From contig NC_134831.1 of NCBI RefSeq assembly GCF_004210375.1, forward strand, positions 99,017,522 to 99,081,521: 64,000 nt of DNA. The letters run 5' to 3'. This document shows, piece by piece, positions 13,695-56,050 of this stretch (its first letter is position 1; each line of letters begins with the position of its first letter). A program made the position numbers and the translations under genes. The stretch comes from Tachypleus tridentatus (Eukaryota). Under the pieces are notes generated by a model that saw nothing but the letters and a program-made list of their open reading frames with translations, was not told where the DNA came from and searched no databases.

Positions 13695-16600
13695 CAATAT
13701 TTATTTTTATTTTAGACTGTCAGTATTACACAATGTGTAATTAATGTCTGCTTTAACTGATCATGACCAGAAATAAACATTATATACAAACTACTCATTG
13801 TGAAACAAGTAATATTTATTTTAGACTGTCAGTATTACACAATGTGTAATTAATGTCTGCTTTAACTGATCATGACCAGAACTAAACATTATATACAAAC
13901 TACTCATTGTGAAACAAGTAATATTTATTTTAGACTGTCAGTATTACACAATGTGTAATTAATGTCTGCTTTAACTGATCATGACCAGTACTAAACATTA
14001 TATACAAACTACTCATTGTGAAACAAGTAATATTTATTTTAGACTGTCAGTATTACACAATGTATAATTAATGTCTGCTTTAACTGATCATGACCAGAAC
14101 TAAACATTATATACAAACTACTCATTGTGAAACAAGTAATATTTATTTTAGACTGTCAGTATTACACAATGTGTAATTAATGTCTGCTTTAACTGATCAT
14201 GACCAGAACTAAACATTATATACAAACTACTCATTGTGAAACAAGTAATATTTATTTTAGACTGTCAGTATTACACAATGTGTAATTAATGTCTGCTTTA
14301 ACTGATCATGACCAGAACTAAACATTATATACAAACTACTCATTGTGAAACAAGTAATATTTATTTTAGACTGTCAGTATTACACAATGTATAATTAATG
14401 TCTGCTTTAACTGATCATGACCAGAACTAAACATTATATACAAACTACTCATTGTGAAACAAGTAATATTTATTTTAGACTGTCAGTATTACACAATGTG
14501 TAATTAATGTCTGCTTTAACTGATCATGACCAGAACTAAACATTACATACAAACTACTCATTGTGAAACAAGTAATATTTATTTTAGACTGTCAGTATTA
14601 CACAATGTGTAATTAATGTCTGCTTTAACTGATCATGACCAGAACTAAACATTATATACAAACTACTCATTGTGAAACAAGTAATATTTATTTTAGACTG
14701 TCAGTATTACACAATGTGTAATTAATGTCTGCTTTAACTGATCATGACCAGAACTAAACATTATATACAAACTACTCATTGTGAAACAAGTAATATTTAT
14801 TTTAGACTGTCAGTATTACACAATGTGTAATTAATGTCTGCTTTAACTGATCATGACCAGAACTAAACATTATATACAAACTACTCATTGTGAAACAAGT
14901 AATATTTATTTTAGACTGTCAGTATTACACAATGTGTAATTAATGTCTGCTTTAACTGATCATGACCAGAACTAAACATTATATACAAACTACTCATTGT
15001 GAAACAAGTAATATTTATTTTAGACTGTCAGTATTACACAATGTGTAATTAATGTCTGCTTTAACTGATCATGACCAGAACTAAACATTATATACAAACT
15101 ACTCATTGTGAAACAAGTAATATTTATTTTAGACTGTCAGTATTACACAATGTATAATTAATGTCTGCTTTAACTGATCATGACCAGAACTAAACATTAT
15201 ATACAAACTACTCATTGTGAAACAAGTAATATTTATTTTAGACTGTCAGTATTACACAATGTATAATTAATGTCTGCTTTAACTGATCATGACCAGAACT
15301 AAACATTATATACAAACTACTCATTGTGAAACAAGTAATATTTATTTTAGACTGTCAGTATTACACAATGTATAATTAATGTCTGCTTTAACTGATCATG
15401 ACCAGAACTAAACATTATATACAAACTACTCATTGTGAAACAAGTAATATTTATTTTAGACTGTCAGTATTACACAATGTATAATTAATGTCTGCTTTAA
15501 CTGATCATGACCAGAACTAAACATTATATACAAACTACTCATTGTGAAACAAGTAATATTTATTTTAGACTGTCAGTATTACACAATGTATAATTAATGT
15601 CTGCTTTAACTGATCATGACCAGAACTAAACATTATATACAAACTACTCATTGTGAAACAAGTAATATTTATTTTAGACTGTCAGTATTACACAATGTAT
15701 AATTAATGTCTGCTTTAACTGATCATGACCAGAACTAAACATTATATACAAACTACTCATTGTGAAACAAGTAATATTTATTTTAGACTGTCAGTATTAC
15801 ACAATGTATAATTAATGTCTGCTTTAACTGATCATGACCAGAACTAAACATTATATACAAACTACTCATTGTGAAACAAGTAATATTTATTTTAGACTGT
15901 CAGTATTACACAATGTATAATTAATGTCTGCTTTAACTGATCATGACCAGAACTAAACATTATATACAAACTACTCATTGTGAAACAAGTAATATTTATT
16001 TTAGACTGTCAGTATTACACAATGTATAATTAATGTCTGCTTTAACTGATCATGACCAGAACTAAACATTATATACAAACTACTCATTGTGAAACAAGTA
16101 ATATTTATTTTAGACTGTCAGTATTACACAATGTATAATTAATGTCTGCTTTAACTGATCATGACCAGAACTAAACATTATATACAAACTACTCATTGTG
16201 AAACAAGTAATATTTATTTTAGACTGTCAATATTACACAATGTATAATTAATGTCTGCTTTAACTGATCATGACCAGAACTAAACATTATATACAAACTA
16301 CTCATTGTGAAACAAGTAATATTTATTTTAGACTGTCAATATTACACAATGTATAATTAATGTCTGCTTTAACTGATCATGACCAGAACTAAACATTATA
16401 TACAAACTACTCATTGTGAAACAAGTAATATTTATTTTAGACTGTCAATATTACACAATGTATAATTAATGTCTGCTTTAACTGATCATGACCAGAACTA
16501 AACATTATATACAAACTACTCATTGTGAAACAAGTAATATTTATTTTAGACTGTCAGTATTACACAATGTATAATTAATGTCTGCTTTAACTGATCATGA

Positions 16601-18650
16601 CCAGAACTAAACATTATATACAAACTACTCATTGTGAAACAAGTAATATTTATTTTAGACTGTCGGTATTACACAATGTATAATTAATGTCTGCTTTAAC
16701 TGATCATGACCAGAACTAAACATTATATACAAACTACTCATTGTGAAACAAGTAATATTTATTTTAGACTGTCAGTATTACACAATGTATAATTAATGTC
16801 TGCTTTAACTGATCATGACCAGAACTAAACATTATATACAAACTACTCATTGTGAAACAAGTAATATTTATTTTAGACTGTCAATATTACACAATGTATA
16901 ATTAATGTCTGCTTTAACTGATCATGACCAGAACTAAACATTATATACAAACTACTCATTGTGAAACAAGTAATATTTATTTTAGACTGTCAATATTACA
17001 CAATGTATAATTAATGTCTGCTTTAACTGATCATGACCAGAACTAAACATTATATACAAACTACTCATTGTGAAACAAGTAATATTTATTTTAGACTGTC
17101 AATATTACACAATGTATAATTAATGTCTGCTTTAACTGATCATGACCAGAACTAAACATTATATACAAACTACTCATTGTGAAACAAGTAATATTTATTT
17201 TAGACTGTCAGTATTACACAATGTATAATTAATGTCTGCTTTAACTGATCATGACCAGAACTAAACATTATATACAAACTACTCATTGTGAAACAAGTAA
17301 TATTTATTTTAGACTGTCGGTATTACACAATGTATAATTAATGTCTGCTTTAACTGATCATGACCAGAACTAAACATTATATACAAACTACTCATTGTGA
17401 AACAAGTAATATTTATTTTAGACTGTCAGTATTACACAATGTATAATTAATGTCTGCTTTAACTGATCATGACCAGAACTAAACATTATATACAAACTAC
17501 TCATTGTGAAACAAGTAATATTTATTTTAGACTGTCAGTATTACACAATGTATAATTAATGTCTGCTTTAACTGATCATGACCAGAACTAAACATTATAT
17601 ACAAACTACTCATTGTGAAACAAGTAATATTTATTTTAGACTGTCAGTATTACACAATGTATAATTAATGTCTGCTTTAACTGATCATGACCAGAACTAA
17701 ACATTATATACAAACTACTCATTGTGAAACAAGTAATATTTATTTTAGACTGTCAGTATTACACAATGTATAATTAATGTCTGCTTTAACTGATCATGAC
17801 CAGAACTAAACATTATATACAAACTACTCATTGTGAAACAAGTAATATTTATTTTAGACTGTCAGTATTACACAATGTATAATTAATGTCTGCTTTAACT
17901 GATCATGACCAGAACTAAACATTATATACAAACTACTCATTGTGAAACAAGTAATATTTATTTTAGACTGTCAGTATTACACAATGTATAATTAATGTCT
18001 GCTTTAACTGATCATGACCAGAACTAAACATTATATACAAACTACTCATTGTGAAACAAGTAATATTTATTTTAGACTGTCAATATTACACAATGTATAA
18101 TTAATGTCTGCTTTAACTGATCATGACCAGAACTAAACATTATATACAAACTACTCATTGTGAAACAAGTAATATTTATTTTAGACTGTCAATATTACAC
18201 AATGTATAATTAATGTCTGCTTTAATTGATCATGACCAGAACTAAACATTATATACAAACTACTCATTGTGAAACAAGTAATATTTATTTTAGACTGTCA
18301 ATATTACACAATGTATAATTAATGTCTGCTTTAACTGATCATGACCAGAACTAAACATTATATACAAACTACTCATTGTGAAACAAGTAATATTTATTTT
18401 AGACTGTCAATATTACACAATGTATAATTAATGTCTGCTTTAACTGATCATGACCAGAACTAAACATTATATACAAACTACTCATTGTGAAACAAGTAAT
18501 ATTTATTTTAGACTGTCAGTATTACACAATGTATAATTAATGTCTGCTTTAACTGATCATGACCAGAACTAAACATTATATACAAACTACTCATTGTGAA
18601 ACAAGTAATATTTATTTTAGACTGTCAATATTACACAAAGTATAATTATA
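13695..18650. repeat. Satellite array of a 109-bp unit, about 45 tandem copies (about 5 kb), inside the myosin intron.
   Basis: Unit taatatttattttagactgtcagtattacacaatgtgtaattaatgtctgctttaactgatcatgaccagaactaaacattatatacaaactactcattgtgaaacaag. The period was measured as 109 bp at three successive copies. Confidence 0.97.
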
Positions 18651-19835
18651 AGTAATATTTATGTCAGATTTACCAATATTTAACATTTAATTAACACAAT
18701 TTTTCTTTTGCTTTATTTAATCATAAACAAAATATACATACACACTTTTAAGAATGAACACATTTTACATTTTAATTACATTGGACTAACACGCATGATA
18801 AATTCCAAAAATTATTTAGTTATAAAAATTAAATTATCTCATAATTTTATGATAATGATAATGGAAAACATTTTTTTTAAAAAACTTAGGAGATACCATT
18901 TGTATTATATTATGTTGGCTTGAAGTTTAATTTTTTTTAAATTTTCGTTATCTACAAAGTGTAAATTACAGTTTTCTTCAAATATAAAAACAGGAATGTG
19001 ATTTATCTTTGTATACCAATCTCTATTCATATATCTCAAGATGGCTGGTATGGATATTAAAAAAAGGAACATTTTTACTTCAAGTGTCATCATGAATCTC
19101 TATTCTTATCTTAAAATTTGATTCATGTACACAAACTAAAAATATTATGTACTACACGAAATAATTTAATGAGTTATTAACATCATAAAAAATTCTGTTT
19201 CATTTATTTATTGTTAAACAATATTACCAACCCAAATAGAATGACCAATACAGAAAATACTTTTTATTCCTAACATAGCATAAAATAATATAAACACACT
19301 TCAGTAGACAAAAGACATAGTTATTGGTTCATAAACTGCAAAAGTGACACAGCAGTGTTTACATTCAATGAAAGATTCTTAGCAGCTTGAATTTTCTAAC
19401 AGATGATGTAAAATATTCTCATGCTAAGCAGTTTGAATAGCGACATGTTTACGTTAATAAAAGATATTTAACATCTTATTTTGTGATACAAATGTCATAC
19501 AGTTTATGTAGTTATTATATTATCAAATTATTTATATAATTATACATAGTTGGGGACCATATTAAGTAATTATAATGAGTTTTAGTGGTTTTTGTAACAG
19601 ATATAAGTAACAAAAAACAACCTTCTATAGTCCAAAAGTTATTAAAATAATGAACAAGTTTCCTTTGTGTATTCCTGTGTTTACAAATTTTATAAGTATA
19701 TAACTGCTTACACATTTTCAAGTATAAAAAAAGGATTAAAACAAAATAAGGCTTAGTATTATTCTTTGTATTATTAGTATTATTCTTTGGAGTTTACATT
19801 CTGATTAAGTATATTTTATTGCAAGCTACAGTTTT

Positions 19836-20115
19836 TTTGTTTGTTTATTTTTTGAATTTTGAACAAAGCTACTCGAGGGCTATCTGTGCTTGCCGTCCCT
19901 AATTTAGCAGTGTAAGACTAGAGGGAAGGTAGCTAGTCATCACCACCCACTGCCAACTCTTGGGCTACTCTTTTACCAATGAATAGTGGGATTGACCGTC
20001 TCCATATAATGCCCCCATGGCTGAAAGGGCGAGCATGTTTGGAGCAACGGGGATGCGAACTCATGACCCTCAGATTACAAGTCGCACACCTTAACACGCT
20101 TGGCCATGCCGGGCC
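19836..20115 (-). mobile_element. tRNA-derived SINE (family 1), an older CpG-decayed copy.
   Basis: Reverse complement of the tRNA-like head (ggcccggcatggccaagcgtgttaaggtgtgcgacttgtaatctgagggtcatgagttcgcatcc) and body. The A/T-rich tail, seen as its complement gtttgtttattttttgaattttgaacaaagc, is at the 5' end on the plus strand. Confidence 0.85.
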
Positions 20116-20649: not shown

Positions 20650-21480
20650 TATCATAAAATCATAATCCCAGAAGTTGGAAAGTTCTGTATGATAAGTTTG
20701 AAACTGAACACACTTAAGATAAAGACCCAACTCAATAACATCAACCCAGTAATGTTCTGTATGATAAGTTTGAAACTGAACACACTTAAGATAAAGACCC
20801 AACTCAATAACATCAACCCAGTAAAGTTCTGTATGATAAGTTTGAAACTGAACACACTTAAGATAAAGACCCAACTCAATAACATCAACCCAGTAATGTT
20901 CTGTATGATAAGTTTGAAACTGAACACACTTAAGATAAAGACCCAACTCAATAACATCAACCCAGTAAAGTTCTGTATGATAAGTTTGAAACTGAACACA
21001 CTTAAGATAAAGACCCAACTCAATAACATCAACCCAGTAATGTTCTGTATGATCAGTTTGAAACTGAACACACTTAAGATAAAGACCCAACTCAATGACA
21101 TCAACCCAGTAATGTTCTGTATGATAAGTTTGAAACTGAACACACTTAAGATAAAGACCCAACTCAATAACATCAACCCAGTAAAGTTCTGTATGATAAG
21201 TTTGAAACTGAACACACTTAAGATAAAGACCCAACTCAATAACATCAACCCAGTAATGTTCTGTATGATAAGTTTGAAACTGAACACACTTAAGATAAAG
21301 ACCCAACTCAATAACATCAACCCAGTAATGTTCTGTATGATAAGTTTGAAACTGAACACACTTAAGATAAAGACCCAACTCAATAACATCAACCCAGTAA
21401 TGTTCTGTATGATAAGTTTGAAACTGAACACACTTAAGATAAAGACCCAACTCAATAACATCAACCCAGTAATGTTTTAA
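20650..21480. repeat. Tandem repeat of a 72-bp unit, about 11.5 copies.
   Basis: Period 72 bp (24-aa periodic pseudo-ORFs). Three frames lack stop codons, which produced the overlapping ORFs in the track at 20614-21486. Confidence 0.95.
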
Positions 21481-22717: not shown

Positions 22718-23035
22718 GTGTCCACAAGTTTAAAAACACAGCTTTTAGTGGTATTAGTGCCCCCAGTGGCACAGTGCTAGAAACTTGATGTTGATACCTA
22801 TGGGGGCAGAGCACAGAGAGCCTATTGTGTAGTTTTGTGCTTCATTACAAACAAAGTGGCATGAGCCCCCATACTTACTATTGAATCATTAAATACTATT
22901 GTAATTTTATTCTTTTTAGAGAGACATTTACAGGCCAGCTTACCTGGCTGTTTTCTGTCGTTGGGTTTGATACATCGGACATACCATGGTTCTTTTGACA
23001 TTAATATTGTCATCAACTGAGACAAGCTTCTCTTA
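22718..23035. repeat. Copy A of a roughly 320-bp segmental duplication. It contains a SINE2 insertion plus the functional myosin exon at 22944-23049.
   Basis: About 90 percent identical to 24937-25250 over a SINE2 element and the adjacent exon sequence. Confidence 0.9.
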
Positions 23036-23049
23036 AACTGGGTGGCTGT
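22944..23049 (-). CDS. Class I myosin exon. It encodes [35 protein letters not shown](A).
   Basis: Conserved myosin motif VRCIKPN. Aligns with MYO1[37 protein letters not shown]. Donor CAG|gtaagc. The acceptor is most likely tcgaag| at 23049; an alternative lies 4 nt downstream. Confidence 0.85.
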
Positions 23050-24320
23050 CTTCGAGAAGAAAAGAAGAAGTATTATATCATAAAGAGCAGCCTACTTATG
23101 AGAAGACATTATTGATGGTTACTAGTGACAGGTTTTTAATGTTTTGGACTGATACCTGTTATTGTTAGAAGCTTTCCAAAATGAAACAGATGTTTTTACT
23201 TTATGATTTAAAACTGCAACCACAGTTAAACGTATAAATCGTTTCACTCTGCTCTATATGATGGAAATATTGCCACTGTACAAGTTATATCAAGTAAAAA
23301 GTATAAGGAAAAGCTGACTAAATGTGTGAATGCTTCCTGTATGGATATTACTTTCTAAAAACTTTAAACAGTTTAATCAGGTTTTAACTAAACTAATTAT
23401 TTCTTTACAGAAATTATCTAAGGTTATAAGTTGTTTTTCTAATTATACTTATGCTACTTTCTGAATCTTATATCAGTAATAAGTTTTATTTAAGCAAACA
23501 ATTAAAATATCAGAATTTTAGGTTATTTTTTTCTTACTTGACCAACTGAGACAACAAGAACACTTTCTCTTACTACTGTTGAAAAAAAGAAGCATATTAA
23601 AGATAGAGACATGCCATTCACTTATTTTTGGACAGTTTATAATTTAAAGTGTTTTGCTGACCAATCAATACTAACCTTATATATTGTGTCTAATTAATTC
23701 ATATTTAAAGTAATAAACATAAGACAGTTGCAACCAACAGCTCATGTAACTGACAAAAATCAAGAGATACAGAGATACTGTTAAATATAATTTGTGCCTA
23801 AACACAATGCAGCTAAAGTTCATACAAGTTTAACAATAAATACAATAAGCTGAGACATTTAACCACTGGTCAACAGTTTGGTGAATATCTTACAATAATA
23901 TCAACTATTAGTCAACAGTAGACATCTTACAGTAATGTTAACCGGCAGGGGCGTTGAGAGGCAGGTCAAGCCCCGGGGACAATTATGTCACTGGGCTTCA
24001 TTTTGAAGTCTTAATAAATTCATGGTACATTCATGGGCATATGAAGAATTTTACTAGTGGGTGGAAGCCAAATGTGTTGATAATATACATTTTTTTGATA
24101 AAAAGGTATTTATTGAGGCAAAGAAATTTCCAGCAGTACTGGGATTTTTCCTTAAGTATATTATAAAAATGAGAATACACTATTCTTTATCCCATATTTT
24201 CCCAGGCCCCAGGACTGTATTCCCCCCCCCCACCATCTTGTCAGGCCTGTCAATCAGTAGTCAATAGATTGGCAGATATCTTATAATACTGTTAAACATA
24301 GATCAATTTAGCTAACTTAC

Positions 24321-24936: not shown

Positions 24937-25250
24937 TTAAAAACACAGCTTTTAGTGCTATTAGTGCCCCCAGTGGCACAGTGCTATGTCTGCAGTGCTA
25001 GAAACTCGATGTTGATACCTGTGGGGGGCAGAGCACAGATAGCCTATTGTGTAGTTTTGTGCTTCATTACAAACAATGTGGCATGAGCCCCCATACTAAC
25101 CACTGAGTCACTAGCAGAAAGGAAAATAAGTGTAATTTTATTCTTTTTAGAGAGACATTTACAGGCCAGCTTACCTGGCTGTTTTCTGTCGTTGGGTTTG
25201 ATACATCAGACATTAATGTTGTCACCAACTGACACAATTGATGTGGTTAG
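24937..25250 (-). pseudogene. Copy B of the duplication. It is a pseudo-exon copy of the VRCIKPN exon, with a 19-bp deletion and a CGA to TGA stop.
   Basis: The minus-strand reading gives [11 protein letters not shown] with an intact gtaagc donor. The block accatggttcttttgacat is missing relative to copy A. Confidence 0.8.
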
Positions 25251-25603: not shown

Positions 25604-26588
25604 CTGGAAACAATGATGTGTAAATTAAAATGTGAAAAAACAACATTCAATAAAGGAAAGCAATAACTGATTACTGAACCATAAGAAACTAAGACACTCA
25701 AATAATTTAATAATAATATATCATTATCAGAATTATGAAGAGAATAAAACTTAAATCGAATGATATCTTTTACAGTTATTAATTAAACACCATAAAGCTA
25801 TAAACTCATTTTTTTCTGTTTTAAGAACGAATTCAGAATGATGAAAGACAGAAAAACAACTGGGAATCTGTGATTGAACTCATATCACTGGATAACCCTA
25901 AGTAGTATGTTTAGTATAACATTGTAATTATATAACACTAAAAAACAATATTCATTTTTATTGACTGAAATGATGTTGAATACAGTTCTGTAATGTTGTG
26001 TATTGTTACCTTTATGTGAGACTCCAGACACACAAAATGAGCACTTACAAAAAGATATCAAATGCATGTTAAAATAAGGCTGATTTTGTATACACATACA
26101 TACTATACCAATACTATAGTTATACTGATAAATCCTTTGTTTAAAAGTTTACACTGAAACAGAACCAGACTGTTAAAATGCTGTTCTTGTTATCACCACC
26201 TTATTTAAATAAAAGTTTCTCTCTCTATAATTTGTTTTCTTACTGTATGGTTTTATGATAACAATGGTGTGAAAGTGGTAAGGTGTAATGTTATTAAACA
26301 CACAAGTGCAAACACATCAATATCTAGCAAGTATATTTGACGAAGGCCATAATACCTAAATCTGGGCTACTACTGATATCTATGTCGAATTGTTCAGTTG
26401 TAGAGAAATGCATGAACTGAAACTAAAACCTATGCATTTCATATTTTATTATGAACATCTTAATGTTATCACTTCTATGCTATTTTTAAACTAAGAATTG
26501 TAGACACACACTAAAAACAATACTTGTGTATACTACAGTGTGATAGAGAGAAGTAAAGTATTCTCATATCAACAGTAAAAAAAATTAC

Positions 26589-26637
26589 CGTCCACTCTGT
26601 ATGTGACATCTCCGGCATAATGTCTCAGTCTGAATTC
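26589..26637 (-). CDS. Class I myosin exon. It encodes EFRLRHYAGDVTYRVD(G).
   Basis: Aligns with MYO1C EFRLLHYAGEVTYSVTG. Acceptor gtgtttcag|, donor G|gtaatt. Confidence 0.88.
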
Positions 26638-27372
26638 CTGAAACACACAAACACATGCACCAATAAGAGGTAATTACTGAAAAACAGAACATTTGTTTGG
26701 TATAAATAAACCAATGTTATAACCAATAGCATTGTCAGACATGGTCAATTTATATAATAGTCAGATATTTTTAAATTAAACAAGCTTGATAACATAAAAT
26801 AACATTAAAATATAATAAAGAACATTATGGTCCTTCTAGGCTGTCCTATTCACTGTATTAAACTAAACCAAAAATAAAGTTCCATGTCAACCATTATCAT
26901 TCAATTACTCATCAAGTGTACCATTCTGTAATGAGAATTATGCTTTCTTAGCTGAAAATGACTCCCACCCTCTCAAGGTTTATACTTATGTCCCTCACTA
27001 TTTTCATTTTGCCATTAAATAAATAATAGAAAAAAACACATGATGATTAACACTATCATTTCTCTTAGTTGGGTTTAGTGATATTTTTTTCAGACTACTT
27101 GAATAACGTATGAACTTTGATGCTATATATTACAAACCAGAGGTAAAAGATGAGGGTAATTAATGAAAGTATGTGTTGTGATAATTACTAAAAAAGTATT
27201 TAATTAGATAAATTAAATTTATCTAATGACCATAAGATAAGACCCAGATGAAATTAAATTATTTCATACATGATAGGAAACATAACATGAACAAAACAAA
27301 ACTTAATTAGTCCACATTTATAATAAATTTAAAGTTTTCTATATGATGTGAGTTACATATGATAGTTAATTA

Positions 27373-27848
27373 CACTATGTAACACAAATTTTGTTCCTGG
27401 ATGGTGTATGTTATTTCTTAATTGCTTATGTTGTAAAAGTACAGAAAATGGTCATTATTCCCTACAAGCTTTGCTTTTGTGACTTGGATAATGAAATTTA
27501 GAAATTAACCTATTTTCTATGTAAAAACAGGCAAATTTGCATATTTTCATTTACATAAGGTACAAATAAAACATATGAATCAAGATTTACATGTATTTAT
27601 ACTAAAGTTATACAAAAATGTTTAGAAGTGAGTAGTTTTTCGAGATTTGCAACTGTAATGTAAATCTCTTTCACGTGTCAGCTCCAAATATAGTTTCCCA
27701 TCATGTTTTCGTTATACGCTCCCAGGTCACAAAAGCTGAGTTTGAGAGAAAAATGGGTCTTTTCCATTTACTTTAGGCATAAGCAATTGGGAAATAACAC
27801 TTTCTGTCCAGGAACAAGAAAAAGTAAAAATTTTGTAACATAGTGTTA
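27373..27848. mobile_element. Second copy (about 90 percent identical) of the Harbinger-like MITE, flanked by a TTA target-site duplication.
   Basis: Same TIRs as the copy at 1297-1783. Left flank tta, right flank tta. Internal sequence is collinear. Confidence 0.75.
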
Positions 27849-28228
27849 TTAACTGTTTATATACATATATAACAAGTAACATACAGCATATCTCTGGTAC
27901 ACACTCAATGTCACATAATCAATAATTTACCAGCATATGGGCTAACAGCAACAGTCAGCTACTCTATTTATTAAATGTGAAAAATGTAGTGATTATATAT
28001 ATGTCTTCAGTGCTATTTTCCTGGATATCCATGTTGGATATTGATAAATGAGTGGTAACAGTTCATACTGCAGTTTATTTAATAGAATACTTGTCTTTTT
28101 TCAGAAAATGATTTTTCTAGCAGATAAATCATACTTAAACAGCAATTAAATTTATTAGTTTAATATCTGTTTACATTCAATCATCTTATTTCCAGTTATC
28201 CTTCAAAACAATGTACAACATACGTGTA

Positions 28229-28374
28229 TGTAAAAAACAGGTCGTTTGGGTTGAGAAAATATTTTACGTAGAGGAGCGAACAACGTTTCGACCTTCTTCG
28301 GTCATCGTCAGGTCGAAACGTTGTTCGCTCCTCTACGTAAAATATTTTCTCAACCCAAACGAGCTGTTTTTACA
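28229..28374. repeat. Long near-perfect inverted repeat (hairpin). The arms are about 51 bp and perfect, extended to about 63 bp with one internal mismatch, around a 19-nt spacer.
   Basis: Left arm tcgtttgggttgagaaaatattttacgtagaggagcgaacaacgtttcgac at 28242-28292. Its exact reverse complement lies at 28312-28362. The spacer is cttcttcggtcatcgtcag. The flanks tgtaaaaaacag / ctgtttttaca also pair. Confidence 0.95.
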
Positions 28375-28767
28375 TATATATTTCTCTACAAGTGGGTTTT
28401 CTTGACATCACTAATGTACAACATATCCTCTAACTAGCAAACAAATGACAAATATAAAAATTACTTATCCATCTGAGTCAACGTTCATCACAGAATTTTG
28501 TTTTTCTCAAATGACTAGTCAAAATGGGTTTTTACATTTCTAAAACATCCAGAGTAAATTTCTAAAGACCTTCTATGAAACATTGAACATTTATTTCAAT
28601 GAATGATAAATTATTAAATAAAATTTGAATAACAATCAACAGGTTAGTATACAATTTTTCAAATATAAAATTTTCACTGGTCTTATAGAATCTTAGCTTA
28701 AATAATTACTTCACAAACAAGTCCATTTTCAGAATTTGCTTATACTTAAATGTTAAAAGATTCTTAC

Positions 28768-28905
28768 ATTTCTATTTAATGTTTTCTTAGTTCTTTTGTC
28801 TGCTGTCTTATGGGAGAGAAAGTGTTGGTGTGACCCAACAAGTGTTTCTAGTTTATCAAGGAATGTCGAGTCTGTTGCATCACCTGGTCTAAAACATTCT
28901 TCGTC
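28768..28905 (-). CDS. Class I myosin exon. It encodes [46 protein letters not shown].
   Basis: Aligns with MYO1C [46 protein letters not shown]. Acceptor ctgtag|, donor AAT|gtaaga. 46 codons. Confidence 0.9.
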
Positions 28906-30899: not shown

Positions 30900-32900
30900 G
30901 GGTTTTATTTAGGAAAGCTTGTTTTCATGTTGCTCACTCCAAGTCAACTGCCAACTAGCACGGAGCCAAGCTTTGAATACAGGATCATAGCCCATGTATG
31001 GAACAGGCACAGTGGTGATAGAGCTAGAGCAAATAGATTTAGCTGCAGTGTTGGTAAGCTCGTTCCCATGAATACTGAGTATATCATCAGGTCTGACCAA
31101 TGTACTGGTAGACTGATGAATGACCAGTTTAAGTTCAACCAGTGTAAAGGAATGATTATAGTCGCAGAGACAATCTGCTCGAGTCTTAATGGCTAAGAAG
31201 GTGTTGGAAGAAGCAGAAGTGCTAGATACCTGAAAAAAGCTTTCACCAAGAGTATCGGTGATGCTCTGGTATCAGCTACTTCCTGTCCATCAGAGAGCAA
31301 GACAGAATTATATTGCCCACTGATCTTTCAAATCTTGTCCCACGTGACTTTGGAACTGGTAGTAGAAGATATGCTGGTTGTGAACTTAATACAAGATTCC
31401 TTCTGGCTTTGATGTCTTACCCACCAAGCATGTGCACGGGCCTGCTGGAAAGAGATGCAGTGCAAGAGTGTGGGATACCTATGAAAAGTATCCCAGGCCT
31501 GGTTCTGAGCCTTTTTGTGCCATGTGGCAAGCAGGATTTCACCACGAACGAAGATATTTTAGAAAACGTGCCGAGGTTTTAGGAATACATTGAGTAGCTG
31601 TTTGTATAATACAGTCAGTTACTGCTGCCACACAGTCATCTATTGATGGCTTACAGATGATGGCAATATCAAGTTCTGTGAGAGCAGTGAAAGAGGACCA
31701 GTTTGCTTGATCAAGCTTCCACTGAGGCACGAGGGTTTGGTAGCATCGACCACGGCCAGTCTCTTTCAAAATAATTGGAAAATGATCACTGCCTCATGAA
31801 TTATTGTCAACCCTCCAAGAAAAATGAGAGAATAGTAAAGGGGAGCAAATTGAGAGATCAACAGCAGTAAATATCAGCACTTATCCAGAGGGGATGATGT
31901 CTATTAAAAATGTCAGGATTAAAAATGGAGATGGCAACTGTTCAATGAGAGCATTAAGATCTGATTGATCATGGGTTTCTCCAGGGGACAGGTAGAGAGA
32001 ACAAACAGTGATGGTATGACCCAAGGAAACATGGATGGCTATAGCATCCTAGGGTGTATAGAGTGGCAAAGACAGGGTGGGCACATGCTGATCAACCAAC
32101 AGCACCACTCATCCATCACATAGCCTGTCATTTCTATACAAAGAGAACTGCTGAAAGGTGATTGTATCAGCAGGTTTCAGAAATGTTTCCTGTAAGGAAA
32201 GACATACAGGATGGTAGGAAGCATCGTAAACCTCGACAGTTCCATTGTATCAAGGTGGACATCTTTATTCATATGAAGGCAACTTGGGTGGAGAACCCTT
32301 CTGTTTACGACCACATCTTTTTTCTTTACTGTCTTTATTCGAGGGAGATCTATCAACCTCCATGGATCCTGCCCTGGGTTGATTAGACAAGTCTTTGCTG
32401 TTGGAAGAGGATTCCAGTAATTGAGGATGTGAATGAATGATCGTTTTGCATCTAGTGTGGAAGAAGATGTATCTGAGGAAATGCCTGTACCTGGAACCAA
32501 AGGATGTGGATCTTGGGGTTTGCTGGAATGTATGTAAGGGACAGAGATGGGTGTTGAAGTTGATTCATCAACTTTAACCATGGAGGTCAAAAGACTTTAC
32601 ATTTGGTTTGAGAATGATTCTTTTGAAGGCACAGAGAGATCCATCTGCACTCCCACTGTAGTAATGTAATGAAGTGCAGCAGCATACATCCGAGATGAAG
32701 TGGTAGACAGCAACTTTCGAGCCTCAGAGTAAGTAATGTTTTGAATCATTTTCAAATGCTTAACCTCTTTTTCTTCCAACCATTTAGGGGAAGAATGAAA
32801 GTAGTATGTGTGAGAGCCATTGCAATTGATGCAACGAGGGTCTGTTTCACACTCATAGGCATCATGGTCCTTGCCACTGCAATGAGCACACGTCAAGGAA
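30900..32900 (-). mobile_element. Degraded non-LTR retrotransposon fragment: a gag-like CCHC ORF1 plus the start of ORF2.
   Basis: The minus ORF at 32597-32896 carries zinc-knuckle-like CAHCSGKDHDAYEC...CINCNGSH. The minus ORF at 31539-31769 carries a PQWKLDQANWSSF motif typical of LINE ORF2 downstream of the endonuclease. The plus-strand ORFs here are antisense. Confidence 0.5.
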
Positions 32901-33884
32901 CTTTGAGTGACCGAACTGCTGACACTGAAAATATTGGAGAGGGTTTGGAATGTATGGCTATACTCTGCAATTAAGATAACCTACCTTGATGGTGGCAGGT
33001 GGATATGGTGATGTAAATAAATAATAATAAATCAACATCTTCTGACAGTTCTTAGTTCAATAATTTTGTAATGAAGTTTTAAATAATTTAAACACATGAA
33101 AAAAAACACCAAATTACTATTTCAATGATATTTACATAAAGGTTCTTGTCATAAAACCTTTTAGTTTTATAACGATTTACAATACCAACTTTTGTGTACT
33201 GATAAGAAAGCACCTACGAAGAAGCTTGTGAATAAAATACAGAGAAAAGGACCACACTAAATGCTCAGTGTTATCCAGTATACATAAGAGAAAAAATAAA
33301 TACAAGTTTTAAAAAAAGAATGTAAAGCAAAATCAGAAAGTGTTACTTTAAATCTATAAAATAGATTTTTTTAAACTTGTAAGCATCACAGAGGTGGGCG
33401 ACAATAACTGAAAGGAAAAATGTCAATGATGACCTAAAGATGTTGTAACTCAAAAAAACGTTTTAAAGAAAGCCTTTTTAGCAGTTCTGAAAGAATTTGA
33501 TAGACACAAGAGCATGACTGTCAGAAAACAAAACAGTATGCTTGTTTATTTCATGTGTTTGCAAAAATATACACAAGAACTATCTGCCATGTCCATCTCT
33601 AATTTTGAACTGATAGACCAAAGTATAAACCTTGCTAACTGACAGTTACTGACGTAAAGAAAAAAATATGGAACTCACCTTCCATTAATGGTTAATTTTT
33701 ATTTTATTCAAAGAAGAGTTTTGTTACCAAGCAGATTCACAGTTTAGTGATATGTAGTTTGTTTGTGTTTTGATAGATGTACACCACAAGTTGAACTTTT
33801 CCTAGTGATTTTACTGTGAGCATAACAACATTCATTTGCTAAGACAGTTACGTTAATAAACCATGCCATATTCTACGCTCCTCT

Positions 33885-34135
33885 AAACTTTTGGCTCATC
33901 ATTGTCAGGTGGTTAGGGTTCTTGACTTGCAATCTGAAGGTTGCAGGTTTTAATCCCTGTTACACTAAACATGCTCACCTTTTCAGCCATGAGGACATTA
34001 TAATGTGATTGTCAATCTCACTATTCATTGGTAAAAGAGTAGCTCAAGAGTTGGCAGTGGGTGATGTTTACTCTCTGCCATTTCTCTTGTATTTTACTTC
34101 TAAATTAGGGCTAGTATAGATAGTCCTCATGTTGC
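33885..34135 (+). mobile_element. Diverged SINE1 copy.
   Basis: Collinear with family 1 (gttgcaggttttaatccc...cattggtaaaagagtagctcaagagttggcagtgggtgatg) but heavily mutated. Confidence 0.6.
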
Positions 34136-34371
34136 TTTACATATATATCTTATATATATGTAATATATCTTAAGTCAATGTTTACATCCTTTATCATAAA
34201 CCCAATTCTGATGTGTAATGACTTAAATATAATTCATAAATATTCCACTTCATTGCTTTAATTAGGTCATAGTATGAACAATGTCTGGATCACTGTTATG
34301 TCTGTTATATATCAGCCAGCCTGATGGTCCTTAGAATTGGAGGAAAATCCTCATCACTACTGGATATATCA

Positions 34372-37869: not shown

Positions 37870-39180
37870 ACAAAACAACAAGTCATTAAAAATAAATACA
37901 TGTAGTTTAAAGTTATTATATTACCTGTGAGACTGAACAATGTACACTGAATATTGATAATAAATACATGTAGTTTAAAGTTATTATATTACCTGTGAGA
38001 CTGAACAATGTACACTGAATATTGATAATAAATACATGTAGTTTAAAGTTATTATATTACCTGTGAGACTGAACAATGTACACTGAATATTGATAATAAA
38101 TACATGTAGTTTAAAGTTATTATATTACCTGTGAGACTGAACAATGTACACTGAATATTGATAATAAATACATGTAGTTTAAAGTTATTATATTACCTGT
38201 GAGACTGAACAATGTACACTGAATATTGATAATAAATACATGTAGTTTAAAGTTATTATATTACCCTGTGAGACTGAACAATGTACACTGAATATTGATA
38301 ATAAATACATGTAGTTTAAAGTTATTATATTACCTGTGAGACTGAACAATGTACACTGAATATTGATAATAAATACATGTAGTTTAAAGTTATTATATTA
38401 CCTGTGAGACTGAACAATGTACACTGAATATTGATAATAAATACATGTAGTTTAAAGTTATTATATTACCTGTGAGACTGAACAATGTACACTGAATATT
38501 GATAATAAATACATGTAGTTTAAAGTTATTATATTACCTGTGAGACTGAACAATGTACACTGAATATTGATAATAAATACATGTAGTTTAAAGTTATTAT
38601 ATTACCTGTGAGACTGAACAATGTACACTGAATATTGATAATAAATACATGTAGTTTAAAGTTATTATATTACCTGTGAGACTGAACAATGTACACTGAA
38701 TATTGATAATAAATACATGTAGTTTAAAGTTATTATATTACCTGTGAGACTGAACAATGTACACTGAATATTGATAATAAATACATGTAGTTTAAAGTTA
38801 TTATATTACCTGTGAGACTGAACAATGTACACTGAATATTGATAATAAATACATGTAGTTTAAAGTTATTATATTACCTGTGAGACTGAACAATGTACAC
38901 TGAATATTGATAATAAATACATGTAGTTTAAAGTTATTATATTACCTGTGAGACTGAACAATGTACACTGAATATTGATAATAAATACATGTAGTTTAAA
39001 GTTATTATATTACCTGTGAGACTGAACAATGTACACTGAATATTGATAATAAATACATGTAGTTTAAAGTTATTATATTACCTGTGAGACTGAACAATGT
39101 ACACTGAATATTGATAATAAATACATGTAGTTTAAAGTTATTATATTACCTGTGAGACTGAACAATGTACACTGAATATT
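37870..39180. repeat. Tandem repeat of a 68-bp unit, about 19 copies.
   Basis: Unit ttacctgtgagactgaacaatgtacactgaatattgataataaatacatgtagtttaaagttattata, nearly identical between copies. Confidence 0.95.
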
Positions 39181-39419
39181 GCAAAATTAAAGGTAGTTAT
39201 TCAAACTGCACAATAAAACCTTTTAACTTTAGACTTTTGTACAACCTGCATACATTCCAATGGACACTTCATCTGTATTTGTCAACTGGCAAGTAAAAAT
39301 TAATTTTACATCAAGAATATAAGCATTATTAGTTGGTAAGTAATGTTATACATATAATGTACCATTAATCAAATGTGTACAGAAATAAGTATGAAAAGTA
39401 TTTCACTAGATATACTCAC

Positions 39420-42439: not shown

Positions 42440-43010
42440 ATTTGGTCCAATAGTAGTAGTTTACAAATAGCTTTGTTAACACGGAGATAATAGCAGTAGT
42501 TTACAAATAGCTTTGTTAACACGGAGATAATAGCAGTAGTTTACAAATAGCTTTGTTAACACGGAGATAATAGCAGTAGTTTACAAATAGCTTTGTTAAC
42601 ACGGAGATAATAGCAGTAGTTTACAAATAGCTTTGTTAACACGGAGATAATAGCAGTAGTTTACAAATAGCTTTGTTAACACGGAGATAATAGCAGTAGT
42701 TTACAAATAGCTTTGTTAACACGGAGATAATAGCAGTAGTTTACAAATAGCTTTGTTAACACGGAGATAGTAGTAGTAGTTTACAAATAGCTTTGTTAAC
42801 ACGAAGATAATAGTAGTAGTTTACAAATAGCTTTGTTAACACGAAGATAATAGTAGTAGTTTACAAATAGCTTTGTTAACACGAAGATAATAGTAGTAGT
42901 TTACAAATAGCTTTGTTAACACGGAGATAATAGTAGTAGTTTACAAATAGCTTTGTTAACACGGAGATAATAGTAGTAGTTTACAAATAGCTTTGTTAAC
43001 ATGGAGGTAA
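42440..43010. repeat. Tandem repeat of a 40-bp unit, about 14 copies.
   Basis: The unit tagtttacaaatagctttgttaacacggagataatagcag is repeated. Variants acgaag/acggag and tagtag/tagcag cluster in blocks. Confidence 0.95.
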
Positions 43011-44646
43011 TAGCAGTAGTTTATTTACCTTTTTAACCATTGGAAACAGAAGTCATCTGAAATTATGAGCTTTTCACTAGAAAACTGATAAGGCCAATAT
43101 CTTATTTAATTCCTAATATATAACAAGGGTATACAGGTATGTGTTGTGTATAACAAGGGTATACAGGTATGTGTTGTATATAACAAGGGTATACAGGTAT
43201 GTGTTGTGCTTTTTTCCTACTATCAGACCAAAAACAAGAACCTTAAACTGTTATTCTACTAAGAAAATCCAGTATGTAAGTGATGTTACACAAGTTATAT
43301 CCTGTCAATAAAGAGAGATAAATATTTTCATTTAATAATCAGATGATGGTAAGTAGGACCTGATACAAATGTAAGATTAAATTTGAATCCAATGTTAAAC
43401 CATAAAGGGAAGAAAACCTGACTCAATTGCTTCATTCTAAATGATATCAAAGAGAATTTTATGTCTTTATGACTAAAAAAAATAATTTTGTTTATTTTTT
43501 ATAGTTGAGCTTAAAGCTACACTATTGTGCTATGTCCAACCCAAGTATCAAAATTCAATTTTTATAATTTTAAGTCTGTAGACTTACAGCTATACCACTG
43601 GGAGGTGAAAAAATATGGAGCTACAGCTTCAATCACATTATTTAACATATTGAAGAAAACACAGCAACTCAAGTTCTCTTTTATCTTATTACAAATTAGC
43701 TGGAGTGCCCATCCCCTGGATAAAAGTTATGTAATTCTTGATTAATGACAGGTTATCTTAGGATATGAAAAGTTGCTTCCGTTACGCATACTTGTGAAAA
43801 TTGCCCATAGAAACTGCAAAACACAGAACTGAAAATTTGTATCTATCTCTCCATGGACTCAATGAGCCTCCTTATTATATATGCTGAAAGTCCATCCACA
43901 GGAGGTGAGAAACTATCAGAAAATGATAAAAACAATGTAAGACTTAACATTAGTATGCACCCTCACACAGGCCTAATGAACTGCCATAAACACTTTGGTA
44001 AAGATCCATCCACACTCTGCAAATCAGTGATATGGACATACAACAGAATACTATAAAATTTGTGTAGATACGTATGATTTACCCTAAAATAAATTCTTTT
44101 CTGTATAGCTGTCGCTACCACTTAGGTTTATTACACCTTCTTATTGGCTATATGATACAATGCAGAATTTACAGTTTACTTAATATGTAACTGTTTCTTG
44201 CTTAAACATGATTTCTTAATAAGTGATACTTTAAAAACAAGAAACCCAAAGACTGTGAAGTACTCTATACTACAGAGTGTTTGGAAAGTCACTGTGCAGT
44301 TTTGAAAGTAGCAATAACAGCATTCATTCAGTCTATTTCAAGCCAGCAACTGATAGCGGTGTTTAGAAACAAAATAAGAAGGATCCAGGTCTGTACTGAT
44401 GCCAACGGGGCCACTTTCAACATTGTTTATAAATGTCATTCATATTTACCTCCTGTATTCTATATTGAAACATGTCTGTTAATAAATATACAAGTGCACA
44501 CTGACTTTCCGTATACCCTGTATTTTCATAACTAGTACTATATACATACATATGTACATGCTGTACATTTATTAACATTATCTTAATAATGTAATAACAA
44601 AAATTAACAAGTATATTAATTAATAAATTGAGAACATATTTGGTAC

Positions 44647-49899: not shown

Positions 49900-51180
49900 G
49901 CCTAATACAATATTTTTCTTCATGTTATATACAGAAAGTATACAGCATACTTTATTACAATCTAATACAGAAAGTATACAGCATGCTTTATTACAATCTA
50001 ATACAGAAAGTATACAGAATGTATACAGCATTCTTTATTACAATCTAATACAGAAAGTATACAGCATGCCTTATTACAATCTAATACAGAATATATATAC
50101 AGCATGCTTTATTACAATCTGATACAGAAAGTATACAGCATGCTTTATTACAATCTAATACAGAAAGTATACAGCATGCTTTATTACAATCTGATACAGA
50201 AAGTATAGAGCATACTTTATTACAATCTAATACAGAAAGTATACAGCATGCTTTATTACAATCTAATACAGAAAGTATAGAGCATGCCTTATTACAATCT
50301 AATACAGAATATATATACAGCATGCTTTATTACAATATAATACAGAAAGTATAGAGCATGCTTTATTACAATCTAATACAGAATATATATATAGCATGCT
50401 TTATTACAATCTAATACAGAAAGTATACAGTATGCTTTATTACAATCTAATACAGAAAGTACAGAGCATGCTTTATTACAATCTAATACAGAAAGTATAC
50501 AGCATGCTTTATTACAATCTAATACAGAAAGTATAGAGCATGCTTTATTACAATCTAATACAGAAAGTATAGAGCATGCCTTATTACAATCTAATACAGA
50601 ATATATATACAGCATGCTTTATTACAATATAATACAGAAAGTATAGAGCATGCTTTATTACAATCTAATACAGAATATATATATAGCATGCTTTATTACA
50701 ATCTAATACAGAAAGTATACAGTATGCTTTATTACAATCTAATACAGAAAGTACAGAGCATGCTTTATTACAATCTAATACAGAAAGTATACAGCATGCT
50801 TTATTACAATCTAATACAGAAAGTATAGAGCATGCTTTATTACAATCTAATACAGAAAGTATAGAGCATGATTTATTACAATCTAATACAGAAAGTATAG
50901 AGCATGCCTTATTACAATCTAATACAGAATATATATACAGCATGCTTTATTACAATATAATACAGAAAGTATAGAGCATGCTTTATTACAATCTAATACA
51001 GAATATATATATAGCATGCTTTATTACAATCTAATACAGAAAGTATACAGTATGCTTTATTACAATCTGATACAGAAAGTATAGAGCATGCCTTATTACA
51101 ATCTAATACAGAATATATATACAGCATGCTTTATTACAATCTAATGCAGAAAGTATACAGTATGCTTTATTATAATCTAA
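49900..51180. repeat. Satellite of a 36-39-bp unit, about 34 copies, with a roughly 292-bp higher-order periodicity.
   Basis: Unit ctttattacaatctaatacagaaagtatacagcatg. The ORFs at 50081-50323, 50373-50615 and 50665-50943 are near-identical and offset by 292 bp, which indicates a higher-order repeat. Confidence 0.9.
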
Positions 51181-52701
51181 TTTCTCTTAAATTTCAGCGT
51201 TATATGAAACATAACTGTTTCATTTTGGGAAGTTTTAAACAAAATGTAATACTTGTTAAAACTGACAATGTTAAGAAATCATGCATATGCAAAAAATCAT
51301 TTACAAAAAAACAATCCAATACCCTATCACCCAAGCACTTTTAAAAATGCACCTCTCATAATTAGTTTGCTTATGTAATTTTTTATAAATGTTCACTGTA
51401 ATTTAACTAACCATTTGCATTTAAAATGCAACATTCATAAACTTGAGTTACTTACTAACATTGAGTATAATGTGATCATTATTTTTATCTTGACCAGCAA
51501 GTGTACATTTTTTAAGTGGTTAGTTTTCTAAGTTGGTTCTGAGACACTGATTAACCTCTAAGGATATATCAGAAAAATATGTCCTGTCAAAACTGCTGTG
51601 CCTGATTAAAGGACTTCATTTTTTTTTCACACATGTGAAAAAACTTCCTTTATTGTTCACACACGCATTTTCCCTATCCTTATAGTTTGTTTTTTTAATT
51701 AATATTATTATAACGTTTTAACATATATCCACTTTTAATTATTCTTATAGATTCTTTTATAGGTTAGTTACAATGGAGCATAAGTGAGTAATTTTCATGA
51801 GGTTCGTGTTTGAATTAGAACATCAAATTTAAATTTTATGTTATATAGAGCTTGAGCACATTATATTAAATAAAATTATTCTGGAGCCTCAAAATGATGT
51901 AGCAGTCTATGTTATCATGTTCTGTCTATGCATCCTGACATTAGCTATGCATCATAGTTTCCATTGCAAACGATTTTGTCATAAGGCTATAATATCCAAA
52001 GCACACTACTCCTACTTGAATTGTATCCATAATCCATCAGGTGTACAGTAAGTCAATGGAAAATACATCAAGTAACTTGACCAACATGTCTTTGTACTGA
52101 AAATAACAAATGCTTCTTTCATTTTATAGCTACTTGAGTCATGTAATAGTTGAACAGATATGTTATGAAAGCAACTCTTATTATGGTTTTTCCAGACAGC
52201 AGTCCTTCTTGATTATGTTACATACTGTTGCCTGAGGCATTTAATCAACTTTTGCTGCTGACCTTTGTGACTATAAATTATTACCTTTTATAAGATGCCA
52301 CCTTTTGCTTATCAAATCAGGGATATGACTTGATAGAAGTCTCTTTATTTTTGGTCCTGGTTCCCCAAGTTGGTCATTTTACAAGGGGCATCCTCATTAA
52401 AAAACCTGATCTGGACATATTTTTATGTAAATGTATGAATATCTTGTGTTGGAAAAGGCTGTTACACATCAGCTGTTATTGCCATGTGAATTGCTGAGTT
52501 ACATATTCAAAATTATTTTAATATAATATACTCACTTCTCTGTCCATAAGCATCAGCCACAACTAACTTTTAAAAATTTTTAAGAGTTTTATACTTTGGG
52601 TTAAAAAGGTCAGTCTAAATCTTGTTTATGTTCTACACAACAATAAGCCATAGCTTTTAGAACTTGTATAAGCTATACATTAAAATTCAAAAGATTTTCT
52701 A

Positions 52702-53745: not shown

Positions 53746-55777
53746 CTATCCTAATCCTAACATTGTTTACCCTTGTATTTAAAAACTCATTTCTGTTTGT
53801 TTTTATGTTAAATATTTTCATCCTTTTGGATGTCCTTATTTCCTGTTTGACCAACTTTCTTAATCTTCTATTATACCATGGTAAGATATATATATATATA
53901 TATCTTTATATATATATAATTAAAATGCATTATGTCAAGAATGGATTTTTATTTAAACATTATCATTTCTGCAACTTTAAATTTGTTCTTGATTCAGATC
54001 CCCAGATGTTCATTAACAAATTTCTTGGGCTTATAATGCAAAAAATCAAATTTCAATACTCATGATGGGCACAGCACAGATAGCCCATTTGTTTAGCTTT
54101 GTGTTTAACAACAAGCAAAGCCTATTCTGCCAACAACTCTTTCTTTTAGTATTCTGGTTATGGCAGTTGTTTTGTTTCCCAGTATTCTGACATTATTAAT
54201 ATCTGTACAGTATTTGGGTAGTAGGATAAAATAACTAAAGACATTTAAAAACTGGATCACTGTTGGCTGAAAAGTGATACCAAGAAACTGTCTCTACTAC
54301 ACTAAAATGTTAATGTTGATTCTAAGCCTCATTATTTTGTTATATGTTTAAGTAGACTTTAAAACAAGTTTTGGTTTATTTATCTGCACAGCTTCACACA
54401 AATAGCATGAAACAAATCCAATAGGCATAAAATTTTAAAACGACAAAGTGTACTTTTTTAAAGATACAAAACCAGGAAGAACATATGCTGAAAATTAAAG
54501 CCAGTTTTGCAACTTGTTGAAATTAAGATATAAAAAAAATGTATTCAGGTATATTCAGGCTACCTAGCAGAGAGCCAAAAGCTTCCTAAATATGTAGATT
54601 CAGGACTGTTAAAGCAAGAGAAAGTGCTTGAACATGGACAGCAAAAGGAAAAGACAAACACAAAGAAATAAATCTTTACTCTGAAAATTTTCTAAACTTA
54701 CTATCTTATTACAGCTCTCAGTTATGACCTTACTAGCTGCTGGAGTGATGATATGTTTTCACCAGACAAAAACAGAAATCACTATGATACATTGCATTTC
54801 TAAATAAGACAAATGATAAAATTATATCTTATATACAACCTAAATAACAATTCCAAATATCATATGCAGGAAAAACATAAAAAACCTTCCCATGCATAAC
54901 AATTTTTACAAGTACCTCTATCACCCCTTGAGACTAACTTACCACAAGAAACAAAGAAACAGTGCCAAAGAGATATACAAGCTGTTGTAGATGTACATCC
55001 TGCAAGATAATTACCACATGTTTAAGACCATCTGGATGTCACATATGGATAACAAAAATACTGTAATCACATGCAGAAAACCTGTATGAAAATTTTAAAA
55101 AATTCCCTGAATAAATATACATCCTACACCACTTAAAGAAGGGTTACCTTAGCTATTTAAACTGCTATACACATTCTGGATAAGCTTTAAATGTACAAAC
55201 CAATGTTTTCTATTGCCTTTTTAGTTTCTTTTATGACTGGGGTGAACATAATTTATTTTGGGTACACCTTTATAAATCATATAGTTTGCAGTATTTGACT
55301 AATTATTCAGTAATATAAGAAACAATCAAAGTAAATTCTCCCCAGGGAGACTGATTTGTACATTTCACGTTTTAAAAACCTCAATATTCTAGGTGCCTAA
55401 CTCCCCTCGAGGTCCAATAATACCAGGAGAAATAAGTTGGTATCTTAGGAGAGGAATAGGAGAGTCAAGCTCAGAACTTAAATTAGATACGTGGCAGGAA
55501 ATTTGGAATAGAAGAGTCAGATTAGAATATTATCAACTTTTTACGTGTACTCAGAACCTCACGAAACAAGTCTTGCATTTGAATATTAAGAAATGCCACT
55601 ACATGAATGAAACCAAAAATGAATTCCAGCTGCAAACAAATAAAGACTGTTCCTTTTGAGTGTTTTTATTTGTTAAAAATGTAATATATATTAAATAATG
55701 CTTGTCATAAACGTTTTTATACTTGATTAATCTAGTAAAATTGAAGGGTGAAAAAGTTTGATATATTAAGTCTATCT

Positions 55778-56050
55778 TTGTTTGTTTTGAATTTCGCACA
55801 AAGCTACTCGAGGGCAATCTGTGCTAGCTGTCCCTAATTTAGCAGTGTACGACTAGAGGGAAGGCAGCTAGTCATCACCGCCCACCGCCAACTCTTGGGC
55901 TACTCTTTTACCAACGAATAGTGGGATTGACCATCACATTATAACGCACCCACGGCTGAAAGGGCGAGCATGTTTGGCGCGACGGGGATGCGAACCCGCA
56001 ACCCTCAGATTACGAGTCGCGCGCCTTAACACGCTTGGCCATGCCAGGCC
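55778..56050 (-). mobile_element. tRNA-derived SINE (family 1), CpG-rich copy.
   Basis: About 90 percent identical to 19836-20115. The tRNA-like box B region gggatgcgaacccgc is retained. Confidence 0.9.

Follow-up and report, generated by a model that had tools for sequence, protein, structure and literature searches.

Is the long, near-perfect hairpin in an intron of a Tachypleus tridentatus myosin gene a small-RNA locus, a palindromic duplication of local sequence or an inserted repeat? An earlier note on this DNA had left these readings side by side. The window, that is the whole 64-kb stretch that was analysed, is AT-rich and CpG-depleted (GC 0.31, CpG o/e 0.38). Its minus-strand ORF fragments encode a class-I myosin motor. 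When the exons were concatenated and used as a protein query, the best match was 'unconventional myosin-Ic-like' of T. tridentatus (P0117), followed by the protein of the same name of Limulus polyphemus (P0118). Over the 229 aligned exon residues, P0117 is identical except for gaps at the exon-concatenation joins, and P0118 is 86% identical.

The placement of the hairpin inside a myosin intron was confirmed. It is located between the minus-strand exons 28768-28905 and 26588-26637 of the myosin-Ic-like gene. The upstream exon ends with ...KTLNRN and is followed by the GT of a 5' splice site at 28767-28766, and the downstream exon (EFRLRHYAGDVTYRVDG) is preceded by an acceptor AG at 26639-26638. 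The intron between them spans 2,130 nt (26638-28767), and the hairpin is found about 390 nt into it, remote from both splice sites. At another place on the minus strand, a myosin exon end and the start of the next intron are duplicated about 2 kb apart (25047-25205 vs 22825-23091), which looks like a local segmental duplication or a pseudo-exon.

The inverted repeat is present at the reported site and forms a near-perfect palindrome of about 150 bp (28227-28376). It comprises both arms, the loop and an outer pairing beyond a 1-nt slip; no strand is assigned to it, to its arms or to its loop. The left arm (28233-28294) and the right arm (28310-28371) are 62 nt long each, and a G:G opposition at 28241/28363 is the single mismatch between them. 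The arms had been described as perfect over 51 bp with a loop of 19 nt. Perfect pairing was indeed found, with a length of 53 bp (28242-28294 and 28310-28362), and the single-copy loop measures 15 nt (28295-28309). That flanking bases extend the pairing was correct: beyond the slip (A6 vs T5), pairs reach 28227/28376. Internal tandem repeats were not found in the arms. RNA folding, which had been proposed as a check, yielded -115.9 kcal/mol for the + strand and -113.8 kcal/mol for the - strand, compared to a mean of about -38 for shuffled sequences (sd 3.6-3.9; z -21.6 and -19.3, respectively). None of the 200 shuffles was as stable. By a wide margin, the hairpin is the strongest inverted repeat of the window.

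To place the hairpin in an evolutionary context, the Limulus myosin gene was used for comparison (locus L001, later L003). The orthologous Limulus intron shows about 80% identity on either side of the hairpin. According to the base-level alignment, window positions 28223-28412 (190 bp) have no Limulus counterpart. On the + strand, this block consists of the four bases cgtg, the palindrome (150 of the 190 bp) and a non-palindromic tail of 36 bp (28377-28412, + strand). The tail ends with AAGTGGGTTTTCTTGACATCACT, the terminal motif of the repeat family described below, and abuts the right-hand copy of a target-site duplication. The two 13-bp copies of this duplication, AATGTACAACATA, are found at 28210-28222 and 28413-28425 (no strand assigned). 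They are identical at 13/13 positions, and Limulus has one copy that matches at 11/13. The single 13-mer in Limulus, the missing block and the doubled 13-mer in the window together constitute the filled-site/empty-site signature of an insertion.

The block also differs from its surroundings in base composition. The palindrome has a GC content of 0.40 and a CpG o/e of 2.0 (12 CpGs), compared to 0.27 and 0.17 in the surrounding intron; the inserted block is compositionally foreign to the intron. A deletion in Limulus between 13-bp repeats would be expected to produce the same filled/empty pattern, but this explanation is made less likely by the young age of the arms and by the foreign composition. 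Most probably, the hairpin forms the interior of an inserted non-autonomous mobile element of 190 bp, a member of a dispersed repeat family of horseshoe crabs. Insertion into the myosin-Ic-like intron would have taken place in the Tachypleus lineage, once this had separated from that of Limulus.

All CpGs of the palindrome are still paired, and a single substitution and a single homopolymer indel are the only differences between the arms. The small number of arm differences, the intact CpG pairing and the identical duplication copies point to a recent event. Scaled roughly to the 20% intron divergence between Tachypleus and Limulus, they suggest an age in the order of 10 million years or less. 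The locus offers a clean filled-site/empty-site pair between the two genera, and its 'too perfect' hairpin is best explained by a mobile-element insertion that can be dated.

Relatives of the element were searched for in 238 kb of horseshoe-crab DNA, with loci L001-L003 as the Limulus part. The earlier statement that the window holds no other copy of the arm applies to near-identical copies; it does not extend to diverged relatives (about 70% identity), which are found at 56189-56300 and 19033-19094. The relative at 56189-56300 (+ strand) has a single arm and consists of the terminal motif CATGATGACGAGGAACCCACT, a loop-like segment and the body, with its far end broken by SINE insertions. Its section 56207-56286 (+ strand) was detected by nhmmer with an E-value of 2.5e-4 (70% identity over 79 columns, Smith-Waterman z 9 to 10.8), and no copy is present at the orthologous Limulus position. 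The relative at 19033-19094 (- strand) is short and internally deleted and begins with CATGATGAC. On both sides it has the direct repeat AATCTCTATTC, which is perfect over 11 bp and extends to 15 bp if one mismatch is allowed. This relative is significantly similar to the 56-kb copy (z 5.4) and to the Limulus copy (z 5.5), and the stretch that contains it does not align with Limulus. The Limulus copy is located at L001 51831-51921 (E 0.0055, two-sequence profile). Right arm and tail of the hairpin element are 62% identical to it over 117 columns (z 5.8) and collinear along its whole length. Altogether, the three relatives found in the 238 kb are 62-70% identical, with two of them resting on modest E-values. 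The Limulus copy is embedded in a satellite of units of about 42 bp (...ATTACTGTAAGRTGTC...CTGTTGACCAGT...; L001 ~51700-52100).

Each relative corresponds to a defined part of the hairpin element. Read on the minus strand, the left arm, which is homologous to 56189-56300, represents the family 'body' running into the element end. Together with the loop, it is collinear with the 56-kb copy, where the loop matches the sequence that precedes the body. On the + strand, the right arm and the tail follow each other collinearly, an arrangement also seen in the Limulus relative. If A' denotes the body with its end, A the reverse complement of A' and T the terminal module, the + strand of the insertion has the order cgtg, A, loop, A', T. 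The order is loop-like segment, A', T in the Limulus copy and A, loop-like segment, T in the reverse-complemented 56-kb and 19-kb copies. In the window, the 19-mer TGATGACGAGGAACCCACT has a single exact match, upstream of the homologous body (56191-56209). L001 also has a single one, which is inverted and lies downstream of the homologous body (51939-51957); accordingly, AGTGGGTTCCTCGTCATCA is read at L001 51939-51957 and its reverse complement at window positions 56191-56209. The hairpin tail (AAGTGGGTTTTCTTGACATCACT) carries a diverged form of this motif, with an ACCC-to-motif spacing of 37-38 nt as in the Limulus copy. The terminus ...GTCATCA is common to all four copies, and the opposite end is different in each of them.

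Judged by these alignments, the family is dispersed and occurs in both genera, and its members share a body of about 75 nt and a terminal module, ...AGTGGGTTCCTCGTCATCA, that is conserved over about 30 nt. The hairpin arm is this putative body, doubled head to head around a 15-nt single-copy spacer, which results in the palindrome. The family, with its terminal motif TGATGACGAGGAACCCACT common to Tachypleus and Limulus, had previously gone unnoticed. A second palindromic copy was not found in the 238 kb searched. As a separate observation, the terminus ...GTCATCA(YK) is followed by AAT in the flanks of all four copies (AATGTAC, AATCTCT, AATTACA and AATTTGA; 28413, 19032, 56188 and L001 51958). 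This suggests a target preference or an integration microhomology, with two of the four boundaries set after the fact. Exact and degenerate arm patterns had no match in viral contigs, metagenome contigs or prokaryote genomes, and a viral or bacterial origin of the hairpin was rejected. No relative of the translated hairpin ORF was found in the protein database.

The flanks of the copies are informative about the class of the element. The duplication is 13 bp long for the hairpin and 11-15 bp for the 19-kb copy; for the Limulus copy it is about 10 bp with one mismatch, and ambiguous since it lies inside a satellite. Dispersed copies with target-site duplications, which the earlier note had named as a finding that would make the hairpin an ordinary MITE, were largely borne out, with one further copy that has a clean flanking repeat, a third that is ambiguous and a fourth that is disrupted. 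For comparison, the tRNA-derived SINEs of the window have flanking repeats of 14, 13, 12 and 10 bp, and of 8 bp in one more copy. The long and variable duplications, in combination with one fixed and one variable end, favour target-primed reverse transcription. As in SINE-like elements, the duplications are variable and fall into the range of roughly 5-20 bp, one terminus is conserved and the opposite end is variable or truncated. To our knowledge, eukaryotic DNA-transposon superfamilies have fixed duplication lengths of 2-11 bp, and no eukaryotic cut-and-paste superfamily fits long variable duplications with one fixed and one variable end. Judged from duplication lengths and end asymmetry alone, a SINE-like retroposon is favoured at slightly better than even confidence, and a MITE is given a low one. 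A Pol III-type head (tRNA, 5S, 7SL) was not detected: ARAGORN returned nothing on the window, and Rfam gave no such match at E-values up to 10. Neither end of the block carries poly-A or a microsatellite, and no LINE with the terminal 19-mer was found in the 238 kb.

The suggestion of a foldback or MITE-like element was essentially right: a discrete insertion with a target-site duplication and dispersed relatives is present. The 13-bp duplication and the asymmetric ends agree better with retroposition than with a classical cut-and-paste MITE. Such a MITE or foldback DNA transposon, with two long terminal inverted repeats and mobilised by a transposase, would account for the small size (190 bp) and for the non-coding, mainly palindromic nature of the element. 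Mariner and Tc1 remnants are present in the window, and the position of the terminal motif is TIR-like: it precedes the body in one copy, and another copy has it inverted behind the body. The ends of the hairpin copy are weakly alike when inverted: the right end is the family motif beside the duplication, and the left end, cgtg plus the outer arm, resembles this motif at 13/17 positions (p ~0.02). On the other hand, the 13-bp duplication exceeds the superfamily lengths given above, and the duplication length differs between the copies (13, 11-15 and about 10 bp). The left end of the hairpin copy is without the terminal motif, yet both ends abut perfect duplications, and in the 19-kb copy, which is flanked by a direct repeat, the terminal motif is present once only. 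On balance, this explanation is unlikely. With regard to FB-type foldback elements, the arms do make up most of the element, but tandem subrepeats are missing and the duplication is 13 bp instead of 9 bp. A Tc1/mariner MITE with a TA duplication was rejected: the outer TA pairs belong to the palindrome, and the Limulus sequence sets the boundaries 4 and 36 bp further out.

For the SINE-like retroposon, a staggered target-primed (LINE-type) integration would have left the 13-bp duplication. The inverted duplication itself could have arisen by two routes. In the first, the nascent cDNA would fold back and copy itself (snap-back priming). Along the minus strand, the order within the insertion is rc(T), rc(A'), loop, A', and we infer that it matches a Limulus-type first-strand cDNA whose 3' end was folded back and self-copied over 75 nt before it was joined to the target. 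In the second, the palindrome would be inherited from an already palindromic source, with the single-arm copies as arm-deletion derivatives. An extended version of the second route is conceivable, though improbable. According to this version, an undescribed retroposon of horseshoe crabs would have the palindrome as its active source and a 75-bp perfect 5' hairpin in its RNA, possibly propagated or regenerated by snap-back cDNA synthesis. The single-arm copies at 56 kb, at 19 kb and in Limulus would have lost an arm, and intronic copies would feed Dicer, which would yield endo-siRNAs antisense to family members. If the palindromic form does propagate, the family would be a minor but unusual example of a hairpin-bearing retroposon; otherwise, the locus is a matter of ordinary repeat annotation.

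Quite improbable is a functional hairpin-RNA, endo-siRNA or young miRNA-like locus, from which Dicer-made small RNAs would regulate a target, although it would be compatible with a mobile-element origin. The predicted stem is very stable on both strands and is located in the intron of a gene with an annotated protein product; as in hpRNAs, a long inverted repeat is thus part of a transcript, here of its intronic portion. Palindromes derived from transposable elements yield small RNAs elsewhere, and Made1/mir-548 and Drosophila hpRNAs are examples of palindromes that do so. The sequence, however, is not conserved and is missing from the Limulus orthologue. The stem had been regarded as too long and too perfect for a canonical miRNA precursor, and its dimensions bear this out (about 75 bp with a perfect run of 53 bp, compared to about 30-35 bp with imperfect pairing in precursor hairpins of about 60-90 nt). 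Rfam reported nothing at gathering score over the window. At E-values up to 10, the matches to long-hairpin miRNA models are based on structure only and far below the gathering scores (60 bits vs 140; 42 vs 135). Neither arm has a match in the accessible part of the supplementary files of Nong et al. 2021, a study that annotated horseshoe-crab microRNAs. A target sequence complementary to the arms was not found elsewhere in the window.

Other structured RNAs were considered as well. A hammerhead-like motif is present on the minus strand at the loop (CUGACGA-U-GACC..GGUC-GAAAC) and is kept in the 56-kb copy. A hammerhead, Penelope-like element or retrozyme was rejected, as helix I is missing, the Limulus copy does not preserve the motif and there was no model match at E-values up to 10. 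The motifs TGATGA and CTGA made a C/D-box snoRNA a further candidate. It was discarded: the 19-nt motif pairs perfectly with its inverted copy and is unfit for a K-turn, a D box is missing near the end, and Rfam matches are at chance level only.

Rather than a dedicated small-RNA gene, the insertion most likely represents ordinary repeat DNA. It would be neutral today, passively transcribed as part of the myosin pre-mRNA, in which a stem of about 75 bp is predicted. Within the intron, this stem could incidentally serve Dicer or ADAR as a substrate, and by-product siRNAs or RNA editing are plausible. Nothing indicates selection on the block, which is lineage-specific, far from splice signals and matched by sub-threshold Rfam models only. 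The insertion is a candidate source of dsRNA inside the myosin-Ic-like pre-mRNA.

The earlier note had also considered a very recent palindromic duplication. The arms are young, as this supposes, but the foreign composition and the absence from the Limulus orthologue contradict a duplication of local intron sequence. An in-situ duplication of existing intron sequence by fold-back repair or replication template switching and without a mobile element would explain why the arms are adjacent and 98% identical. However, neither arm is present in the Limulus orthologue, though the flanks align; a 13-bp duplication surrounds the block, GC content and CpG frequency of the block are unlike those of the intron, and arm and tail have homologues at non-orthologous sites. 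This explanation is largely refuted and very improbable. Least probable of all, to the point of being negligible, is an artefact of assembly or sequencing, for instance from a chimeric fold-back read: long-read data are known to contain palindromic artefacts, but this palindrome is just 150 bp long and lies within sequence collinear with Limulus, a clean target-site duplication bounds the block, the asymmetric tail is homologous to family copies elsewhere and the arms differ at two positions.

The window contains a number of other repeats. A SINE of tRNA origin, about 275 bp long and with a (CAAA)n-type tail, is present in about ten copies or fragments. The copies are located at 19840-20115, 55777-56051, 56436-56707, 59872-60134, 60647-60916 and 62938-63179, and the fragments at 2684-2766, 33924-34138, 56346-56428 and 56714-56864. 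It is probably the CORE-SINE 'Lipo' that has been reported for Limulus (PMC5804259). Several copies, including 55777-56051, are missing from the corresponding orthologous sites in Limulus. An internally deleted mariner-like element (58426-59336) has terminal inverted repeats of 32 nt that are 97% complementary, and its ORF fragments include a Mos1-type HTH_48 domain (E 2.5e-9). Adjoining SINE copies, an ORF at 62324-62725 resembles the N-terminus of a Tc1/Sleeping-Beauty-like transposase (HTH_SB E 1.3e-8, below the Pfam cut-off). A GC-richer block (0.37-0.38) at ~30900-33000 is located in the neighbouring myosin intron and contains minus-strand ORFs, including a CCHC-knuckle-like ORF of 99 aa (32597-32896). 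It is probably a retroelement fragment; Pfam gave no match.

Large and highly homogeneous minisatellites make up a substantial share of the myosin gene introns. The largest one spans 13706-18648, with 45 copies of a 109-bp unit at 99% identity. Further intronic minisatellites are found at 37891-39181 (68 bp x 19), 49929-51181 (36 bp x 34), 20682-21476 (72 bp x 11), 42449-43023 (40 bp x 14) and 1-566 (63 bp x 9).

Among known systems, the hairpin element resembles the Made1 MITEs and human mir-548 in being short, nearly all palindrome and intronic, as those often are, with a near-perfect hairpin in the host transcript. Made1 is mariner-type, with TA duplications and a total length of about 80 bp. 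The hairpin element, in contrast, has a 13-bp duplication, asymmetric ends and a stem of about 75 bp.

Similar to inverted-repeat SINE pairs such as IRAlus in introns and UTRs, the putative retroposon would provide intramolecular dsRNA in a pre-mRNA. IRAlus consist of two independent insertions of about 300 bp that are separated by a spacer and 80-90% alike. Here, both arms are part of one insertion with a single duplication and are 98% identical.

The Drosophila hpRNA loci are likewise long, near-perfect inverted repeats and, in principle, the hairpin would be a Dicer-2-type substrate as well. The loci hp-CG4068 and hp-CG18854 have arms of several hundred bp, often in tandem, and are their own transcription units with identified targets and some conservation. 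The hairpin described here is shorter-armed, intronic and absent from Limulus.

With twin-priming 5' inversions, snap-back cDNA and inverted 5'-truncated Penelope-like copies, the element would share an inverted segment that results from target-primed reverse transcription. In twin priming, separate portions of the RNA become connected and no portion is copied twice. In the hairpin element, the minus strand consists of terminal module, reverse-complemented body, loop and body, as expected of a self-primed cDNA. Unlike for the twin-priming and Penelope-like systems, a reverse-transcriptase partner, a poly-A tail, Penelope features or a hammerhead were not found for the hairpin element.

The closest comparison within the same genome is the tRNA-derived SINE of the window. 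The hairpin element has no sequence similarity to it and carries neither a tRNA-like head nor a (CAAA)n-type tail. Nevertheless, both are lineage-specific insertions in introns of the same gene, both have flanking repeats of mostly 10-14 bp, and the duplication length of the inserted block matches those of the SINEs.
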